DNA from: an uncultured delta proteobacterium
GTDB lineage: Bacteria > Desulfobacterota > Binatia > UBA9968
Assembly (NCBI GenBank): GCA_963727625.1
Contig: CAVSHR010000002.1
Span: forward strand, 448,001 to 512,000
Reading direction: 5' to 3'
Length of the DNA: 64,000 bases
Shown one piece after another: positions 22,119 through 30,703 of the stretch (position 1 is the stretch's first letter; every line of letters starts with the position of its first letter). The notes below the pieces were generated by a model. The model made no database searches and had not been told where the DNA came from. It worked only from the letters and a program-made list of their open reading frames with translations. The position numbers and the translations under genes are program-made.

Positions 22119-22202
22119 GCCACACTATTGGCAAAATTGGTTTCGCCTTTCAACCGGCATGATCGAAACCCCCCGGTAAAAACCAGTGGAGGTGAAAAGA
22201 AG

Positions 22203-22466
22203 ATGGCCAAGGTTGTGATCTACACAACCAACTATTGCCCCTATTGCACCGGAGCCAAGGCCTTGTTGCAATCCAAGAACGTCGAGTTCGATGAGATCGA
22301 CGTGACCGAAGACCCGCAGCGCCGCCAGGAGATGGAACAGCGATCGCGCCGCTGGACCGTGCCGCAAATATTTATCGATGGAAAGCCGATCGGCGGTTAC
22401 GATGACGCGCGGCTATTGGATGCCAAGGGCGAACTCGACCGTTTGCTCGGAATTGATGCGAAGTAA
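22203..22466 (+). CDS. grxC: Glutaredoxin 3
   Basis: CPYC, TVPQIFI, IGGYDD, GELD.LL. Confidence 0.93.
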   Translation: MAKVVIYTTNYCPYCTGAKALLQSKNVEFDEIDVTEDPQRRQEMEQRSRRWTVPQIFIDGKPIGGYDDARLLDAKGELDRLLGIDAK

Positions 22467-22520: not shown

Positions 22521-22560
22521 AATTGGAGGCGGCGAGCGGATTCGAACCGCTGCATCGAGG
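22521..22560. repeat. 40-bp att direct repeat (duplicated 3' part of tRNA-Cys)
   Basis: aattggaggcggcgagcggattcgaaccgctgcatcgagg, identical at 30546-30585. Confidence 0.95.
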
Positions 22561-22596
22561 CCAAAAGACTAAAAACAAGAAGTGATACGGAGTGTG

Positions 22597-22628
22597 AAAG
22601 GGCCTGGATTACCAGGCTTTTTTATTTT
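22597..22628 (+). terminator. Rho-independent terminator just inside the left island end
   Basis: gcctgg-atta-ccaggc hairpin followed by ttttttatttt. Confidence 0.7.
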
Positions 22629-22664
22629 GGGGTTGTTACCGGGTGCTACGGTTTGTCACCTGGT

Positions 22665-22682
22665 TTGGCACAAAACCGGAAC
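22665..22682. repeat. 18-bp direct repeat near both island ends (putative integrase arm site; other copy 30473-30490)
   Basis: ttggcacaaaaccggaac at both positions. Confidence 0.7.
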
Positions 22683-22822
22683 GTTTTCTGGAACGTTTTT
22701 TTTGCCTATCCGGCAACCTTCAACGGTCGCGGTCGGAGAAGGCACGACATGCGATTAGGCTATTTTTCGCGCTCCGATAGGTTGACCTGGTTTCGGCATT
22801 CAATCTTGGTGGATTCAAATTT

Positions 22823-23497
22823 TTAGACGATCCCCTGCCGGCGCAGCGAAAACAGCGTGGCACCGAGACCCAACAACATGAGGAGAGCAGACCCGGGTTC
22901 CGGTACCGCAGCGGAAGGAGTTGAGGGCGTAAAAGTTAGGTTCTCGATATGCCCTACCACGGTTCGGAAGTCTGGAGGTACGGTGGAGCTGTTACTATAA
23001 GAAAAAGCGACATCATCAACCCAAAGCTCGAACGCTCCGCTACCCTGGGCGTTGGTATACGTAAGATTTTGATGGGTGTTGTCGAAGTTAATCGTAAGCG
23101 AACTGCCGTTTTGGAACTTACCAGCTCCTTGGGTGCTAATGGTACCGTAGATATCCGCGGTGAACTGCTCGGGGCTTCCTGACACTGTCGGATCTGTAAA
23201 AGTGATTTTCAAAGTGAAATCTGCAACCCCATCCTGGGTGCCAAAGGGCTCAGTACAACTATTACCGCATCCGTCTAATGTAAATGTACCAAGGTTTGTA
23301 AGATCAGTCGGTCCTGGACCCACTGGCACATTAAGATTAAAGCTGGCACCCGAGAAGGTCAGGTAAGTGGCGATCGTGGTCGGCGAACTGCTGTTTGTAT
23401 CGCCCGTGAAGGTGACAGCCTGTGCGGTCCCTCTGAAGCCGAGAGCTCCAATGAGAAGTGTTGCCGCTAATAAACTCTTACGTATCCTGAGATTCAT
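22823..23497 (-). CDS. PEP-CTERM sorting domain protein
   Basis: Signal peptide ending AQA; C-terminal VPEPGS, TM helix and RR cluster. Confidence 0.93.
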   Translation of the reverse strand: MNLRIRKSLLAATLLIGALGFRGTAQAVTFTGDTNSSSPTTIATYLTFSGASFNLNVPVGPGPTDLTNLGTFTLDGCGNSCTEPFGTQDGVADFTLKITFTDPTVSGSPEQFTADIYGTISTQGAGKFQNGSSLTINFDNTHQNLTYTNAQGSGAFELWVDDVAFSYSNSSTVPPDFRTVVGHIENLTFTPSTPSAAVPEPGSALLMLLGLGATLFSLRRQGIV

Positions 23498-23606
23498 ATA
23501 TGTTTTGCTCTCCTTTTGCCGCAGTTCGACGCTTGTTCGTGAGGGCCATCACTGCCACCCGGTGCCTCAGCATCGGCAACATGCGCCCTTGGTTTTTTAC
23601 TGTTGG

Positions 23607-23762
23607 AGCAATTACCGGACCATTTTGGGAGATTTGAAATTACTCGGGTTTTTTCAATCGTAGATGGAGCTATGTGTAAACAAAGATTGCAAAAAAAACG
23701 ATCAAAAATTCGTTTCTCAAAATTTTCTGACTTTGTAAACGTTCATTGAGTAAAAGTGTAAA
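23607..23762 (-). promoter_or_regulatory. Sigma54 promoter with upstream TTTACA boxes for the PEP-CTERM gene
   Basis: Minus strand TGGTCCGGTAATTGCT (GG-N10-GC) at 23607-23622; TTTACA at 23675-80, 23734-39 and 23757-62. Confidence 0.65.
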
Positions 23763-23950
23763 AGTCCCTTATACTTTTTGGCTTGGGATTCTCGCCGGCG
23801 GTTGTCTTAACCCTAAGACACAATGGCAACTCTGCCACGCCGCGCGACAGAATTGGCAATTGAAGAGTTCAACCCGTCGAGAGTATGGAATCACCTCTAT
23901 AGTTTCTTTGAACGCAGTGGATGTTTTTGGCGCTATTGGAAAGAAATAGA

Positions 23951-24577
23951 ATGATTACTCCGACTCTAGATAAGACCAAACCCTATGAACCGACGGAGCG
24001 AGAACAGGCGGCGCTTGAGGCGCACGCCGGGCGGGTGAAGAAAAGCCCGCCGGCACCGCGGCTTAAGTCGTGGCATCAAGACAACGTCGCGCAAGTCGTG
24101 GTGGATCACCCGAGCGGCGGTCACGGGCAAGCGTTGCTTATGGAAGCGCTGGGAACGACCGACACGGACTTTTTGGTGGGCATCGTAAGCCAGCTTGGCA
24201 ACGCCGGTTCGATCGGTCCGAAGGTGGACGAGCAGGCGCTGAATTTTTTGCTCTCCGTGGTGAAAGGAATCCAGCCCAAGGACCAGTTAGAAACGATGCT
24301 GGCGGCGCAAATGGCCGCGGTTCACTCGCTGACCATGAACTACGCCCGGCGGCTTGCTAACGCGAACGCATTGCCGCAACAGGAGAGCGCGGAGCGCGCC
24401 TTGAACAAGCTGGCGCGGACGTTTGCGGCTCAAGTGGAGGCGCTGAAACGCTACCGCACCGGGGGCGAGCAAAAAGTGACGGTCGAGCATGTGACCGTCA
24501 ACGAGGGCGGGCAAGCGATCGTCGGAAACGTCTCGAACAACCAAGCGCGGGGGGCGGGTGCCTCAGAAAATCGTTGA
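23951..24577 (+). CDS. Hypothetical protein of the type found upstream of HGGxSTG genes
   Basis: I.PKD..E.MLAAQM.A.H...KLARTF.AQVEALKRYRTGG.QKVTVEHV.V..GGQAIVG. Confidence 0.75.
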   Translation: MITPTLDKTKPYEPTEREQAALEAHAGRVKKSPPAPRLKSWHQDNVAQVVVDHPSGGHGQALLMEALGTTDTDFLVGIVSQLGNAGSIGPKVDEQALNFLLSVVKGIQPKDQLETMLAAQMAAVHSLTMNYARRLANANALPQQESAERALNKLARTFAAQVEALKRYRTGGEQKVTVEHVTVNEGGQAIVGNVSNNQARGAGASENR

Positions 24578-24584
24578 TTACCCC

Positions 24585-24821
24585 ATGCCACGGGTGCATT
24601 GCGGAGCCCGAACCAGGGCCGGCGGTTCATGCCGACAACCCGCCATGTGCAACGGTCGTTGCCGACTCCACGGCGGCAAAAGCAAATCAGGCAGGGACCA
24701 CGGGCGCTACAAGCACGGGTATTTTACACGGGAGGCCATGACCAGTAGACGGGAGTGCGCGGATCTGTTGAGGCTGGCGAAAAGACAAGTAGATGATCTA
24801 AATAAGGCAAGACTTTACTAG
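24585..24821 (+). CDS. HGGxSTG-domain protein
   Basis: CGARTRAG.SC..PAM.NGRCRLHGGKS...KHG.FT.EA. Confidence 0.8.
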   Translation: MPRVHCGARTRAGGSCRQPAMCNGRCRLHGGKSKSGRDHGRYKHGYFTREAMTSRRECADLLRLAKRQVDDLNKARLY

Positions 24822-25243
24822 TCTTAGTGCTTTAAGGCCCATCACTAACCGGTCGCTGGAGTTCGGAGAGCGAGCGGCGCGAAAAAAATCGATCTGGTTT
24901 CACGTCGCCAACGCGTTTTCGCTTCTGATCTCGACCTTCGAGCCGGCGGAGCGGGTCAGCTTGACTAAATCAAGGTGATCTCGAACTACAAGGGATAAGG
25001 ACGCACCGCGGCGAATTTCACAGGATTGAGTCGTAGGAAAATCAGTTCAATCCTGCGATAGCCGCTTGGTTTCTCCATCGCCTGGTTGATCGTTTTCAAT
25101 TTCGCAGTGACAGTTAATTGATCATTTCTTTTTTGGTTCAGCAGCTCGAAGATTCTACCGATTTCCGTTCTCGGTTATTTAGGAATATTATAATCGAGTA
25201 CGATCTTGTTTTTCTCCGGCAAGTTTTCTAGAGGAGCGGAACC

Positions 25244-25567
25244 ATGAAAGTTACGCGAGTCTACTCCGGAGCGGATGGCCAGTCTCCTTTCGACGAGATC
25301 GAGGTGGAGATTGAAAAACTCCAGCCTGGCGATGGTATCATATTCCGCCACGCTCCCCCTGACTATCTCAACGACTGGCATCGGGCGCCTACACGGCAGT
25401 ATGTCATCAACCTGTCAGGTGAAAGCGAGATTGAGATCGGCGATGGCACCAAACGGCGCTTCGGGCCCGGCGATATCTTTCTGGTAGACGATACTTCTGG
25501 GCTCGGTCATATATCACGAGCCGTGGGTAACCGGCCGCGCGTCTTTGTGACAGTCCCCATAAAATAG
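25244..25567 (+). CDS. Small cupin protein
   Basis: DWH.AP.RQYVI.LSG..EIE.GDG..R.FGPGDI.L..D..G.GH.SR. Confidence 0.85.
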   Translation: MKVTRVYSGADGQSPFDEIEVEIEKLQPGDGIIFRHAPPDYLNDWHRAPTRQYVINLSGESEIEIGDGTKRRFGPGDIFLVDDTSGLGHISRAVGNRPRVFVTVPIK

Positions 25568-25696
25568 CCCCAATCGTATCCATCCCCCTAGAGCGGAGCC
25601 AATGGTCTATAGTCAATTACGCTTGGCCTCGGTCCATAAGAATCAAGACCAAATTTCGCGTCAGTTTGAACTGTAAGGCGCTACAGTTTGATTCCC

Positions 25697-25930
25697 TCAC
25701 TCCTTAATCGCCCTCACCATCGTCACCACACTTTTGTTGACGGCAAGAAACGGCGCCTCCCATTTCATTTCCGGGTCGGGTAACGCCTCAACTTTAACCT
25801 CGGTCAACGCAAGAAAATGTTTGTCCGGGCTGTTGAGGAAATCTGATAATCGGGAACCGTAACCGCCCTCACCGGCGAGCGGTATAAACAGTTTCCCTCT
25901 AATCTTGTAGGTAAAGGTGCTGGGGCGCAA
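25697..25930 (-). pseudogene. Small conserved beta-rich protein (DUF6812-like), N-terminus apparently missing
   Basis: TYKIRGKL....SRLSDFLN..DK.FLALT.V...FLAVNK; no good ATG or RBS. Confidence 0.5.
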
Positions 25931-25985
25931 CTCCCCGGCACCTTCGACCTATGCAGACAAAAAACAATCCACTAACCGCGAAATT

Positions 25986-26951
25986 TCAACAACCGCCGAC
26001 GCATTTCCCATTGCGGTTAAATCGCATCTCAACGCCGCTTAAGGGCACATGCACGTCGATCATTCGGTCGACAAGACCGATGAATCTTGCCGTCTTGGTT
26101 CCAGGCTGAACCACTCCGCCGGAGGTGGCCGCTTCGTTCGCGTGCGAAGGGATCACGGAGTTGGGCTTGACGAGTTTGTTTATTGCGAAGGCGGCTTCTT
26201 CAGGACCCGTGCTGAAAACATCGCCGATATTGATCACGGCCAGCTTAGCACCGTATTGCTGCCGAACGACCGTTTCCATATCGGATACTACGCCGGTGTC
26301 ACCGGACAGATACACGACCAGGCCGTTAGAGAACTTAATGATATAGCCCTCTTCGGGACCGACATAGGCTGTAAGGCCGTCAGCGGGAGGGTTTGTAAGA
26401 AACACGGCGGACACACCATTGCTGTGTAGGGCGCGCACCGTGGCAAACGTGACACCATTGATCGTTATCTTTCCGCCGGGACGCAGGGTTGCGGCTTGGT
26501 TGGCCGCTCCCCCCGCAGCCGAAATCTTGGCATTCAGGAAAGCAGGCATCTCCCCGCCTACGAGTACTGTGGAACCTTTTGCGGCCGCGATTTCGGCGAA
26601 GTTGGAATTGGGAGTCTTGTCGACCGTGGCGGTGTTGTCGCCGCAGGCCCCGGGATTAACCGTAGGAATCGCTTTATCGCCGATATGGTCGACGTGGACA
26701 TGGGAAAGCAGCATGACGTCGATAACGTCCAGCCTTGTATCCGACCCTCCCGTTACCGTGCGACCGGGATCGTAAAGGATCCTTAACCCGTTTGGATCCT
26801 CGAATATCAGTGCCCGATCGTTCCGGCAAAATTCTCCATCATTGCTACCGAGGGGTGTAATACGCACCTGATTCTGTGCCCACGCCGAAGACCATCCGAG
26901 AAACAGAAAGCTGGCAACAAGAACGGCATACATTGCACATCTTGGCTTCAT
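25986..26951 (-). CDS. Secreted MBL-fold metallo-hydrolase
   Basis: Signal peptide ending AWA; SHVHVDH, ALHS, YLSGDTG, IPSH. Confidence 0.88.
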   Translation of the reverse strand: MKPRCAMYAVLVASFLFLGWSSAWAQNQVRITPLGSNDGEFCRNDRALIFEDPNGLRILYDPGRTVTGGSDTRLDVIDVMLLSHVHVDHIGDKAIPTVNPGACGDNTATVDKTPNSNFAEIAAAKGSTVLVGGEMPAFLNAKISAAGGAANQAATLRPGGKITINGVTFATVRALHSNGVSAVFLTNPPADGLTAYVGPEEGYIIKFSNGLVVYLSGDTGVVSDMETVVRQQYGAKLAVINIGDVFSTGPEEAAFAINKLVKPNSVIPSHANEAATSGGVVQPGTKTARFIGLVDRMIDVHVPLSGVEMRFNRNGKCVGGC

Positions 26952-27340
26952 CGCTTATTCCTCCCTTTTCTAGCTTTTTGATTTGTGTCGATTTAACCGG
27001 AAAAGATCCGGTGCGGCGGGCTTCGAGCATGACCTGAAAATCGGAAAAGAAGAGCGGGTTTCACCTTTATCTCGCAAGCCAAATTTTGGAACGAAGGAAG
27101 AAAATACTAGAAACAGTTTAGAACATTTGTCGCATATCGAGATATTTTCGGACAGTCAAGTACGAAATATCGGTCGAATGGGACGATCGGCCGAGCTGCA
27201 TCAGTGCGAAAATAAGTTCTTTGTCATTAAAAATCCCCGTATTTTGGGTAAAGTTCGCGTTAAAAAACGAAGTTCAACCAGCGGGGAGCTTCACAGCAAC
27301 CTCGGGCCAGAGGTGATCAGGGGCGGGCCGGCGTCAACGC

Positions 27341-28015
27341 TTAATCAGCCGGCCGAATGCACTCCGGGCTGTCGTTCGCAGGAGAGTTAACCAGCGTCGA
27401 AACGTCGTGCGTTTCCATTAGCTCTGAGGGAAAGGGCTGTAAGTTCGCCGCAAGCATCATTGCAGAATTGACGGCGCATCTTGGATCGAGCCACTGTAAT
27501 CCCATCTCCCTGTCATAGATCACCGGCATTCGGTTGTGGATCGGACGTAGCAACGCGTTGGGCTCGCACGTGATGATTGTGAACGTGTAAAGCTCCCTGC
27601 CGCTCTCACGGTCGCGCCAGAAATCCCACAGCCCCGCAAAGACAAAAGGCTCGCGTTTCTTGAGACCCACCCACACCGGCACCTTACGCTTGCCCTCCCT
27701 GCGCCATTCGTAAAATCCATCCGCTGGAATGACGCAACGCTTTGTGCCCACCAAACGCTTGAACGACGGCTTTTCAAGCAGGGTTTCGGCGCGGGCGTTA
27801 ATCATCCTGTTTCCAATTGTGTGATCTTGTGCCCACGACGGCACCAAACCCCATTTCATTAACTTGCTTTCGTTATTCTCGTCGTTCTGTAGGATTACCG
27901 GCACCTCCTGTGACGGCGCAATGTTGTAGCGGGGACCAAAGGAAAGATCGCCTTGGAGGCTCCACCGGACTTTAATCTCGCGGAAGCTGAATGTTGCTGT
28001 GAATCGGCCACACAT
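27341..28015 (-). CDS. SOS response-associated peptidase (SRAP; YedK/HMCES family)
   Basis: MCGRF start, YNIAPSQ, WGLVPSW, INARAET, GFYEW, IHNRMPVI, VNS..ND. Confidence 0.95.
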   Translation of the reverse strand: MCGRFTATFSFREIKVRWSLQGDLSFGPRYNIAPSQEVPVILQNDENNESKLMKWGLVPSWAQDHTIGNRMINARAETLLEKPSFKRLVGTKRCVIPADGFYEWRREGKRKVPVWVGLKKREPFVFAGLWDFWRDRESGRELYTFTIITCEPNALLRPIHNRMPVIYDREMGLQWLDPRCAVNSAMMLAANLQPFPSELMETHDVSTLVNSPANDSPECIRPAD

Positions 28016-28285
28016 GGGAACGATTAAAAAACGTTCTAGTCTAGAATCCGGTGCGAGGGGAAGCGTTCAAAGCCGTTCTCGCTTGAGAATTTTTCGCCCT
28101 GCGATGATGGCAACATAGGCGAATGCAAGCGCAATGATAATGACCCAGTACAATTCGAGACTCGCGAGCATACCATCGCCGATGAAGGCGAAAATACAAG
28201 CGATAGCGAGAAAAATAGAGAATTGTAACCAGTATGCATAGCCGTTCCCTTCAATACGTCGTATCTGTAACTGAGACGATTGCCA

Positions 28286-28714
28286 TCAAAACAGCCCCCA
28301 CCCCATGCCTACGCGGTAAAGCATTTTGGTTGGAGCACATTCATATCGCACGATCGGCAACTCATCCTCAGTGTATAGATTAGGCGAATCCTCTCTGACG
28401 GTCGCTTTTGCTTTCAATTTGCGCTGTCTCTCTTTCACCCAATCTTTCTGCTTCACGCTCCTATCCCAGTCGCACAACAATTCATATTGATAGAAGTCGA
28501 GAAGTTCCCATTTTGGCAGGGGCGTTTTAAAGGGTTGTGGCATGATTTCTACCAGTCGTCTTGAAGAAATAGTTCTTTCGTAAAGCCCGTACCCTGGAAC
28601 TTCTACACCTGTCTTATTTATCCAACCTCGATAGATTAGCAACGCCTCATCGGTAACCGTAATTAATAGCCCTATGCCAAAAAATAGAACGAGGATTTTC
28701 GCAACATTGTTCAT
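28286..28714 (-). CDS. Hypothetical protein with an N-terminal TM helix
   Basis: 142-aa AT-rich ORF starting immediately beyond the IS end. Confidence 0.55.
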   Translation of the reverse strand: MNNVAKILVLFFGIGLLITVTDEALLIYRGWINKTGVEVPGYGLYERTISSRRLVEIMPQPFKTPLPKWELLDFYQYELLCDWDRSVKQKDWVKERQRKLKAKATVREDSPNLYTEDELPIVRYECAPTKMLYRVGMGWGLF

Positions 28715-28722
28715 CGAGTCTG

Positions 28723-30002
28723 GCAGGCTGCTGAAAGATTGACTCGCAGCATGTTTTGTCTTGTTGTTTTCATTGTTGAGGGGGTCGAAGAGATTGATTG
28801 TCGGTATTTTTCAGACCTCAGACGCGCTTGCGAGGCTCCCGCGGACACACGACGGCCCTCGATTTACGTGGCCGGAACTGCGGAGGCCAGATTTCGCATG
28901 CGCGCCAGATTATAGGCAGCACAGGCAAAGGTAAAGATCCAATGGACTTTGCACACCCGCGATGGCGCACCTTGCGCATCAGCGCGATGGTCTTCAGCCA
29001 GCCGAAGCATTCCTCTATCCGTTTCCTCTTTCTCTGGCTGAGGGCATACCCAGCATGTCTGGTGGTGCGGCCATCAATAGCGCTCCCGCCGCGCCTTGCG
29101 AGGTTATGCGCTACATGTGGCACCACTCTCCTATGCCGGCACTCTTTCACGAAGTCCCGGGTGTCAAATCCTTTATCTCCAACGCTCAGCGGTTGGGTTC
29201 CCCCAATCTGCTCCAGCATTACCAGTACGGCATCGCGTTCCGCGGTCCCGTTGGCCTGGAAGACTTCCGTGTCCATGATCAGTCCATTGCGGTTTTCCAC
29301 CAACAGATTCCCGCTGTAACTCAACTTCGACTCCTTGCCCTCGCCTTTGCGCGCCAGCAGCGCCTCGCCATCGGTCTTCGACTCGTGCGTCTCATTGGAT
29401 CGCCGCTCGCCGCGAAAGTTCACCGTGGGATCGCCCGGATCATCCGGCGGAGGCAATGGCTTTCCCTTTTTCGGCTGGAAACTCTTTGCGCTCGCCCAGG
29501 CCTCCAGCAGCGTACCGTCCACCGTGAAATGCTCGTCCGAGGTCAGACCCCTTGCCCGGGCCACTACCCGCGCCAGAAACTCTTTGGCCACCTCGGCCTC
29601 CAACAATCGGTCGCGGTTCTTGGTGAAGGTGGTCGCGTCCCAGACTCCCTAGTCTGCATTCAGCCCCACGAACCAGCGGAACAAAAGGTTGTAGTCCATC
29701 TCTACCATCAGCAACCGCTCCCTACGGATCGAATACAGCATCTCGAGCAACTGCGCTCGCAACAGTTTCTCCGGCGCTATCGAAGGACGGCCTACGCAGG
29801 CGTACATGCTATCGAATCGTCGCGAAAGCTGGCTGAGGACTTGATCCACCATCGCTCGGATGCCACGCAACGGATGGTCTTTGCCCACCCGCGCCTCCGG
29901 CGACAAATAACTGAACATGTGATTCTGCTGCTGGTCTTCTCCACGCATGTCTTTTTCTACCATAGTCGCCTGTGGATTAGGACTAGTTTTTCAGCAGCCT
30001 GC
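28723..30002 (-). mobile_element. IS5-family insertion sequence
   Basis: Terminal inverted repeats gcaggctgctgaaa (28723-36) and tttcagcagcctgc (29989-30002); right flank CTAG, left flank CTGG. Confidence 0.88.
28864..29948 (-). pseudogene. IS5-family transposase with an in-frame TAG (29649-51) and a 3' frameshift (near 28957)
   Basis: MRGEDQQQ..MFSY.S.E.RV..DHPLR, GRPSIAPEKLLRA, NAD*GVWDATTFTKNRDRLL, HFTVDGTL.EAWAS.KSF, RKRIEE.FGW.K; a shifted frame gives WIFTFACAAYNL.RMRNL. Confidence 0.9.
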
Positions 30003-30703
30003 TAGAGCGCGGGTCGATCACGATCATTCAGAGCAAGACTCTGCGGCGAAAGACCATCGCTATCAACGAGCCGGCGCGGCAGGCGCTCAACTGGCTTCAA
30101 GAGAACCGCTACGGAGAGCTGCTCTTTATGTGGCCGTGGGGCGCGCCAATCGGCAAGGTGACCGTCTACGATGCCTTCAAAAAGGCCTGTGGTGCGGTCA
30201 AAATCGACGATTTCCGGTTTCATGACCTGCGGCATACCTTTGCGTCTCATCTCGTCATGGCGGGTGTGGATTTGGTCACGGTGAAGGAATTGCTTGGCCA
30301 CAAGACTATCAACATGACGAACCGCTACACTCACCTTGCCCAAGAGCACAAGGCGCAAGCCGTGGCGAAACTGAGCGAACGGATGCACGCGGAGAAAACC
30401 GCGACGGACGCTCAAGCGGAGATCGTTTCAGAAGAATTGAAACACGCTATCAACGCGGTTTTGACACCGAAGTTGGCACAAAACCGGAACATTTTTTTAG
30501 TGAGAAGAGGGCGCGGACTCGGAATCGTCAACGATTTCAAAGATGAATTGGAGGCGGCGAGCGGATTCGAACCGCTGCATCGAGGTTTTGCAGACCTCTC
30601 CCTTAACCACTTGGGTACGCCGCCTTGTTGTCTAGCTAACATGAAGATTTCACGACTTGCAACAACGGCGCAAATTATTGACAATCCAGAGGGAAACACG
30701 TAA
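30002..30703 (+). pseudogene. Tyrosine integrase, C-terminal catalytic half; 5' part lost at the IS5
   Basis: Frame open from the CTAG: LERGSITIIQSKT...FRFHDLRHTFASHLVMAGVDL.TVKELLGH.TI.MT.RYTHL; continues across the att site antisense to tRNA-Cys. Confidence 0.88.
30549..30624 (-). tRNA. tRNA-Cys(GCA)
   Basis: GGCGGCG acceptor stem, GAGGT-CTGCAAA-ACCTC anticodon arm, GGTTCGAATCC T arm, encoded CCA; 76 nt. Confidence 0.97.

Follow-up and report, generated by a model that had tools for sequence, protein, structure and literature searches.

The tRNA-Cys island and its integrase remnant

The window analysed here is a stretch of 64,000 nucleotides (nt) from the genome of an uncultured delta proteobacterium (GTDB lineage Bacteria; Desulfobacterota; Binatia; UBA9968), positions 448,001 to 512,000 of contig CAVSHR010000002.1. 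It carries an island of about 8 kilobases (kb) in a tRNA-Cys gene, and at the right end of the island lies what is left of a tyrosine integrase gene (int). The open reading frame (ORF) of this gene runs without a stop through the attachment (att) core, so that int appears to span its own attP, the attachment site of the excised circle. The features needed for the argument are the following.

22128..22466, plus strand: host glutaredoxin-like gene (ORF) that flanks the insertion site on the left; in relatives with an empty site it directly adjoins an intact tRNA-Cys
22521..22560, plus strand: attL core, the displaced copy of the tRNA-Cys 3' end at the left island end (perfect 40-nt direct repeat)
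22562..22585, plus strand: seven codons (QKTKNKK) and TGA, the predicted int ending of the excised circle (translation; length and stop position kept in related left ends)
22597..22629, plus strand: terminator-like hairpin and T-run (folding; a like hairpin in most related left ends)
22665..22699, plus strand: P' arm motif TTGGCACAAAACCGGAACGTTTT (22665-22687, about 105 nt after the left core) and a second GGAACGTTTT, candidate arm-type Int sites
28723..30005, minus strand: insertion sequence (IS) element with an interrupted DUF772 and DDE_Tnp_1 transposase (Pfam), truncating int; 18-nt inverted repeats at 28719-28736 and 29989-30006
30006..30545, plus strand: integrase remnant up to the core, i.e. 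the second half of the catalytic domain and the C-terminal extension (Pfam, translation, homologue alignment)
30473..30495, plus strand: the P arm occurrence of the 23-nt motif, lying within the int ORF as codons LAQNRNIF and 51 nt short of the right core
30546..30585, plus strand: attR core, in the int frame (E)LEAASGFEPLHRG (repeat and translation)
30549..30624, minus strand: tRNA-Cys(GCA), the target gene, rebuilt by the core copy of the island (ARAGORN)
30586..30703, plus strand: integrated-state int tail, FADLSLNHLGTPP from the tRNA antisense strand, followed by host flank for 25 codons up to a stop (translation)

The tRNA-Cys gene is the sole tRNA in the window, and from its coordinates and those of the direct repeat the right repeat copy covers the final 37 nt of the tRNA and 3 further nt. 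This layout is the usual signature of an island inserted in a tRNA gene. Intact tDNA, a displaced 3' tDNA fragment forming a direct repeat and an adjacent tyrosine integrase gene inside the island are all present, as in the tDNA islands defined by Islander, of which the window holds a decayed example. In order to see the site in other genomes, 19 loci of the same genus were fished out by means of the left-flank glutaredoxin gene. Seven of these are empty, with the glutaredoxin gene followed by the full tRNA-Cys, and six are occupied, having a junction of the left-end type; the tRNA is more distant in three, and neither arrangement was found in the last three. In the empty site of genome G011, the glutaredoxin gene is followed by an intact tRNA-Cys and by a right flank as in the window. 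Alignment of this site to both window junctions recovered the host flanks on either side of the core, which confirms the island ends. Judged by these loci, the insertion site is polymorphic and the island is apparently mobile within the genus.

The integrase frame is open on the plus strand from 29987 to a stop at 30701-30703. It has no stop before the core and continues antisense through tRNA-Cys, as an earlier note on this DNA had described. The translation reads ...RYTHL...LAQNRNIFLVRRGRGLGIVNDFKDELEAASGFEPLHRGFADLSLNHLGTPPCCLANMKISRLATTAQIIDNPEGNT, ending ...DELEAASGFEPLHRGFADLSLNHLGTPPCCLANMKISRLATTAQIIDNPEGNT before the stop, and is antisense of the tRNA from LEAAS on. The window integrase corresponds to residues 221-426 of a full-length homologue of 426 amino acids (aa), L011, with 85% identity, and no match to integrase residues 1-220 was found anywhere in the 64-kb window by tblastn. 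Against Pfam PF00589 the window fragment scored 88 bits (E = 8.1e-25, cut-off 27.1) over profile positions 53-172 only, and L011 scored 142 bits over positions 2-172. The remnant retains HDLRH, GH and RYTHL; the first-Arg region (..TGMRQGE..) falls in the missing part and is present in relatives. These motifs presumably hold the catalytic R..K..HxxR..H/W..Y residues of tyrosine recombinases. The core lies about 68 codons past the catalytic Tyr.

The window copy of the integrase is a dead 3' remnant. The system is dead in the window because an IS-associated deletion took the first 220 int codons, and with an integrase lacking its N-terminal half no switching would be possible there. A run of about 21 open codons (spacer and core) has a chance of about 0.36 in random sequence by our own estimate. 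A single open run is therefore unremarkable, and the weight of the argument rests on comparisons within the family.

The int reading frame across the core in related elements

All four full-length tRNA-Cys homologues have an ORF that crosses the core (L009, 432 aa; L010, 423 aa; L011, 426 aa; L014, 426 aa). L014 comes from a genome flagged unpublished (G004), and the result stands without it. Among the 13 tRNA-Cys loci with this integrase tail in reference genomes, window included, 11 have one continuous frame from the catalytic Tyr through the core; the exceptions are L016, with an extra T in a run of seven T's (T7), and L031, which is decayed. As the codons of L016 downstream of the break still read FLVRRGRGLGI... 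in the core frame, the one extra T is the break. Of the best 120 database proteins, 51 end ...EPLHRGFADL..., which is the integrated form. The first 13 residues of the integrated-state tail are identical in all tRNA-Cys relatives and are followed by 0-25 variable codons. By these comparisons, an att core inside the int ORF is the rule in this integrase family and not a peculiarity of the window, and the architectural part of the proposal holds family-wide.

The read-through might instead be a product of decay, seen only where a pseudogene has lost its stop, in which case intact relatives would stop before the core. The window copy is truly a truncated pseudogene, and a frameshift at the T7 run leads to a stop before the core in some metagenome relatives (L016, P0023-P0026 and P0055). 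However, the frame passes through the core in every full-length homologue and in all but two of the tRNA-Cys loci, and in L016 the core frame is intact beyond the single extra T. This explanation is contradicted and is very improbable. The T7 run itself lies within the int extension (30490-30497 in the window, and in relatives; ..AACATTTTTTTAGTG..). Several metagenome proteins, as well as L016, are shifted exactly at this run (NIF and a stop, or NIFFSEKRA...), for which sequencing error, decay or slippage may be responsible.

The same layout was found at other target genes. The genome of the window carries a paralogue, 53% identical, in an island of 10.2 kb delimited by a 37-nt repeat (C12:415360-425879, with its int end in L002), and the ORF of this paralogue runs antisense into the 3' end of the transfer-messenger RNA (tmRNA) gene (...DWWRRGESNPRPKVFHQI, then a stop). 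Its open frame has 381 codons, compared to 430 aa in L017, and the N-terminal domain may be missing. The int ORF also crosses the core at tmRNA in L017, L020 and L022 and at tRNA-Phe in L028, and more distant integrases (L037, L040, L052, L059) cross into tRNA-Lys. The tRNA-Lys integrases are in genomes labelled Nitrospirota, with the antisense reading ...VSRLGLEPRALALKGRCSTD and a stop. Other distant relatives, L026, L027, L049 and L080, stop before their tRNA or tmRNA gene, so the trait belongs to particular clades and not to all tyrosine integrases. The hosts of the family are uncultured soil bacteria labelled Binatia or 'deltaproteobacteria', and a literature search returned no publication on integrase-bearing genomic islands in Binatia.

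Three loci show unusual forms of the int end. L039 has core codons as in the tRNA-Lys set, a different short tail and no tRNA, and is possibly an internal junction of tandem elements. L003 (C7:94332-94571 in the genome of the window) is an orphan int tail of the tmRNA type (...LAQIRNVFLVRSGRGLSV...DWWRRG...), with extra G's in the core and no adjoining tmRNA gene, and is probably what remains of an earlier element. At L010:11017-11163, a duplicated partial tRNA-Cys of 72 nt forms the end of the int ORF (...LSLNH and a stop), and the full tRNA comes after it. The resulting three core copies may be the trace of successive integrations or an assembly artefact.

The int ORF extends about 90 residues past the catalytic domain, and the FLVRRGRGLGI motif within this extension ends 8 codons before the crossover region. 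Coding constraint on the extension was assessed by Nei-Gojobori counts of synonymous (pS) and nonsynonymous (pN) differences per site, and of the ratio of the corresponding substitution rates (dN/dS), on 11 tRNA-Cys-type sequences aligned backward from the core. The ten codons LVRRGRGLGI gave pS 0.417, pN 0.034 and dN/dS 0.057, compared to pS 0.54, pN 0.049 and dN/dS 0.053 for the catalytic domain; the latter ratio comes from 9 clean sequences and was 0.116 when the frameshifted copy L024 was included. Since LVRRGRGLGI is constrained like the catalytic domain, this segment is translated. Between the window and the tmRNA paralogue, FLVRxGRGL differs almost only synonymously. The eight codons before LVRRGRGLGI, LAQNRNIF, showed pS 0.00 and pN 0.057 (dN/dS undefined), with flanking codons at pS 0.36-0.47. 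The absence of synonymous change in LAQNRNIF points to a constraint at the DNA level, and the extension thus seems to serve both as protein and as att DNA, in different parts.

These counts also bear on the possibility that the extension is not protein, its conservation being that of attP arm DNA, with the true stop earlier. Such a reading could draw on the zero pS of LAQNRNIF and its match to the P' arm motif, as well as on some distant relatives that carry the motif in another frame (P0061, ...SWNKTGTSF). Yet the ten codons right after the motif bear a clear coding signature, FLVRxGRGL has been retained across synonymous changes between paralogues that are 53% identical, and 11 of the 13 loci are free of in-frame stops from the catalytic Tyr to the core. 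Up to GRGLGI this possibility is contradicted, and we regard it as hardly tenable.

The LAQNRNIF codons are formed by a 23-nt motif, TTGGCACAAAACCGGAACRTTTT, of which exactly two copies are present in the 64-kb window in the same orientation (0.01 expected), one in the int ORF and one beyond the left core. Circularisation would place one copy on either side of the core. Of 32 distinct left ends, 28 have the P' copy at a distance of about 106 nt past the core, and it was found in the tmRNA island as well. The motif is a candidate arm-type site for the N-terminal domain of Int, and the zero synonymous change in its ORF copy fits an arm-type binding site. In an AlphaFold2 model of L011 Int (30-row alignment), residues 4-56 form a three-stranded sheet and a helix with a predicted local distance difference test score (pLDDT) of 77-86; the predicted fold fits an arm-binding domain. 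Residues 1-70 of L011 Int had no Pfam family match.

An alternative int ending at the left island end

Read in the int frame, the left repeat copy gives EAASGFEPLHRG-QKTKNKK and a TGA at 22583-22585. The earlier note had proposed that joining the core to the left island end, as in the excised circle, would yield ...PLHRG-QKTKNKK and a stop, followed by a hairpin and T-run. The translation bears this out, and the stem-loop at 22597-22622, T-run included, has a folding energy of -20.2 kcal/mol (z = -4.9, none of 200 shuffles as good). A simple consensus terminator scan did not list the hairpin at 22597-22629.

In order to compare the ending among relatives, left ends were gathered without the tail as a search term. 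They came from second core copies in the genomes of five relatives, two ends in known loci, a metagenome scan for the core followed by a non-T base, unlike the tRNA (42 loci), and the same-genus loci. The set comprised 53 ends, 35 of them distinct in the first 60 nt; one distinct end (EKPKNKK) is from genomes flagged unpublished (G004, G010). In 33 of the 35 the stop falls at the same codon, after exactly seven residues, for example QKTKNKK, KNRKSKE, LNRKNKK, EKPKNKK, KSRKIKQ, AKPKSTK and QNNKDKK. One of the two exceptional ends has six residues (VRRRRK, then the stop) and the other has lost the stop by a deletion. The stop is TGA in 32 ends and TAG in 2, and the net charge of the tails is +1 to +5, with a mean of +3.5. 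Length, end point and character of the alternative tail have therefore been conserved. Neither of the outcomes that the earlier note had named as fatal to its idea, homologues stopping early or a tail that is not conserved, was encountered. Of the 33 distinct ends having at least 100 nt past the core, 23 have a terminator-like hairpin with T-run no more than 70 nt further on, as counted by a purpose-written scan (a narrower regular expression gave 16/32), and changes in the stem are compensatory (CTGG/CCAG versus CCGG/CCGG). The DNA just past the stop is also highly conserved in the window (22580-22596) and in 33 related left ends, with AGTGA twice, 10 nt apart (AAGTGATACSGAGTGA). An accessory factor could bind to this stretch.

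C-terminal tails regulate lambda Int and other tyrosine recombinases. For the family described here, we propose an integrative island specific for tRNA-Cys, with a tyrosine integrase gene that spans its own attP. After the spacer, the next 13 codons of int are the antisense of the tRNA 3' end, which forms the core. In the excised circle, int would then end in the other arm with seven mostly basic codons and a stop, followed in most elements by the hairpin terminator. Judged by the sequence, int has a stop and terminator of its own only in the circular form of the island. Integration moves the seven codons and the terminator 8 kb away, to the left island end, and the int ORF then continues in antisense across the entire tRNA-Cys gene, gaining FADLSLNHLGTPP followed by residues that depend on the host. 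In the integrated state, the int mRNA would presumably lack a terminator and be convergent with, and antisense to, the tRNA gene, and the short basic tail of Int would be swapped for a longer, more hydrophobic, non-basic one. The most likely effect, by analogy with Mx8, is that integration reduces or alters Int output. This would favour stable maintenance of the island, as reported for IntP and IntX of myxophage Mx8.

Several observations weigh against this explanation. Attempts to find the attP junction, for which the earlier note had called, were not successful: viral contigs gave no match for the core with a non-tRNA continuation, none of the 42 loci from the same scan of metagenome contigs has the int tail upstream of the core, and none of the best 120 proteins has the core with a non-tRNA tail of the tRNA-Cys type. 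The assembled contigs of four soil runs (best word share 0.31) contained no 22560/30546 joint in either sense, a result that is uninformative on excision. The 8-codon spacer before the core is weakly constrained (pS 0.467, pN 0.327, dN/dS 0.59), with no stops and no indels. Residues 321-426 of the L011 Int model have a pLDDT below 50 (mean of the model 68.7), so the fold is uninformative on a role of the tail. The excised tail is encoded by A-rich DNA from which the lysines would follow alone, and it shows no clean third-position periodicity. Conservation of the DNA runs past the stop (AAGTGATACSGAGTG, AGTGA twice), and hence what holds the stop in place may be a DNA site rather than protein-level selection. 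The left ends of the tmRNA type (n=2) give unrelated tails of 12 and 11 residues (APNDESPDDSEC and APKPKLPSDKK, each with a stop). Finally, the hairpin is absent in 10 of the 33 left ends, and it might just as well act to block transcription entering the island from the host glutaredoxin gene.

Much of this would be expected if the arrangement were a neutral by-product, in which the overlap comes from compactness, the functional end of Int is GRGLGI, the rest is a tolerated disordered tail and the swap is inconsequential. The weak constraint on the spacer, the conservation of the tail DNA beyond the stop, the low model confidence and the unrelated tmRNA-type tails would all agree with it. So would the core residues, which are set by the target tRNA and are wholly different between subfamilies (EAASGFEPLHRG, WWRRGESNPRPK, VARDGIEPPTRRF), and the 0-25 extra residues by which integrated-state tails vary. 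On the other hand, tail length and stop have been kept in nearly all distinct left ends despite many substitutions (AAA/AAG, K/R at the fourth codon), the terminator directly behind the tail stop has been kept with compensatory changes, and the analogous swap in Mx8 is reported, in a passage of a myxophage review (PMC6070905), to change Int behaviour. The by-product explanation is a serious rival with a substantial chance of being right, albeit under even odds.

We consider an attP-spanning int family in which integration has a regulatory effect to be the best explanation, and on balance a probable one. A more far-reaching version can be put forward only tentatively and is rather unlikely as a whole. 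The basic heptapeptide, stop and terminator would then be a selected switch of the integration state, with Int being native and fully active or stable only when made from the circle. In the integrated state, both Int and its mRNA would be altered (tRNA-antisense tail, no terminator, convergence with tRNA-Cys), so that the island is locked in. Int would also bind the arm site in its own coding sequence (LAQNRNIF), by which the layout of attP would be coupled to autoregulation, and the design would be general in a large family using tRNA-Cys, tmRNA, tRNA-Phe and possibly tRNA-Lys.

Comparison with known systems and other contents of the island

The nearest parallel is Mx8, which the earlier note had already invoked. 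According to the review passage cited above, the attP of Mx8 lies within int and integration creates a new 3' end, Mx9 is similar, and Magrini and co-workers found the Mx8 integrase to be modified, not inactivated, by integration (PMC6070905). The present family resembles Mx8 IntP/IntX in having a tyrosine integrase, a core in the 3' part of the ORF and a new 3' end on integration. The core lies inside the ORF, and by sequence the C-terminal residues are replaced. The Mx8 Int ORF (AF396866, 5208-6806) continues far past the catalytic Tyr and contains …GVARSTGLEPV…, which is probably antisense tRNA and would lie about 60 residues past the Tyr, compared to about 68 here. The parallel is thus apt in arrangement, yet the proteins have no detectable similarity (L011 Int against Mx8 Int by BLASTP, best E = 1.6). 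Mx8 is a phage of 49.5 kb, whereas the present elements are islands without phage genes in the parts examined, and the activities of both Int forms have been compared in Mx8, whereas the window family is known from its sequences. Tails in the family have 7 residues when excised and 13 or more when integrated. Mx8 Int is said, in work of Tojo from 1996, to lose a tail of about 112 residues and to gain 13 on integration. The best phage matches of the family are D3-like integrases (34% identity), which cover residues 1-286 only and are without the extension.

Other systems share single features with this one. SSV-type 'suicidal' integrases are described in part of one paper (PMC8371274) as having the recombination site in their own gene, and SSV1 is alike in this respect. 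In SSV1, however, the gene is split on integration, whereas the window family, with the core about 68 codons after the Tyr, keeps the catalytic domain and the extension together and swaps only the last seven codons. The Islander paper, in a passage on this point, mentions that some integrases, e.g. those of Mx8 and SSV, extend across attP, and for this reason allows integrase domains to overlap the tDNA fragment (PMC4383910). In the mycobacteriophages BPs and Brujita and the corynephage CyranoPS, attP lies in the 3' end of a gene and the change of C-terminus acts as a switch of state, as stated in a section of a preprint (10.64898/2026.10.29.762952, citing Broussard 2013). Integration alters the C-terminus of a protein there as well, but the gene is that of the repressor and not of the integrase, and in the same section the removed tail is reported to be a degradation tag. 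Integrative pleolipoviruses have a coding sequence (CDS) spanning attP, according to a passage in PMC7911831. That ORF is likewise complete only in the circular form, but it belongs to archaeal viruses and is a small CDS of its own next to int. A literature search for integrase 3' ends overlapping attP returned only the examples in PMC4383910, PMC6070905, PMC8371274, the CyranoPS preprint and PMC7911831.

The kind of arrangement is already known as Mx8-type, the finding opens no long-standing question, and the copy in the window is defunct. What has been treated as an oddity of a few viruses emerges here as the usual layout in a widespread family of soil-bacterial integrases with at least three target genes. 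Details suited to bench tests are the fixed seven-codon ending in the opposite arm, together with its terminator, and the apparent arm-type site that is also read as codons. For annotation, the arrangement explains integrase ORFs that 'overlap' tRNA genes, and it means that the true C-terminus is unreadable from the integrated state.

The remaining contents of the island include one further feature that recurs in relatives.

23921..24821, plus strand: two overlapping island ORFs of 218 aa and 87 aa, conserved close to the left end in some related islands (L090/L151, L123; tblastn, 73-83% identity)

Neither of these ORFs could be placed securely in a Pfam or PHROG family; the 87-aa one is rich in Cys and Gly (..CRLHGG..). 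Other cargo comprises a PEP-CTERM protein, a cupin, a DUF6812 protein, a metallo-beta-lactamase-fold protein and an SRAP peptidase, and comparison of five island ORFs with PHROGs gave nothing informative. In the island of the intact relative L011 (L011:1-9800), Tad-pilin-like, Ku-like, DUF3854 and DUF3631 (primase-associated) ORFs lie near int, and no relaxase was seen among the ORFs of the int-proximal 10 kb. From the ORF content of L011, cargo varies widely between islands that have the int and att module in common.

In the IS element that truncates int, the DUF772 and DDE_Tnp_1 pieces of the transposase are separated by a stop at about 29649. The unit 28723-30005 was also found as a separate contig of 1322 nt and higher depth in another soil run, differing from the window element by 85 letters and 10 gaps over 1283 nt.

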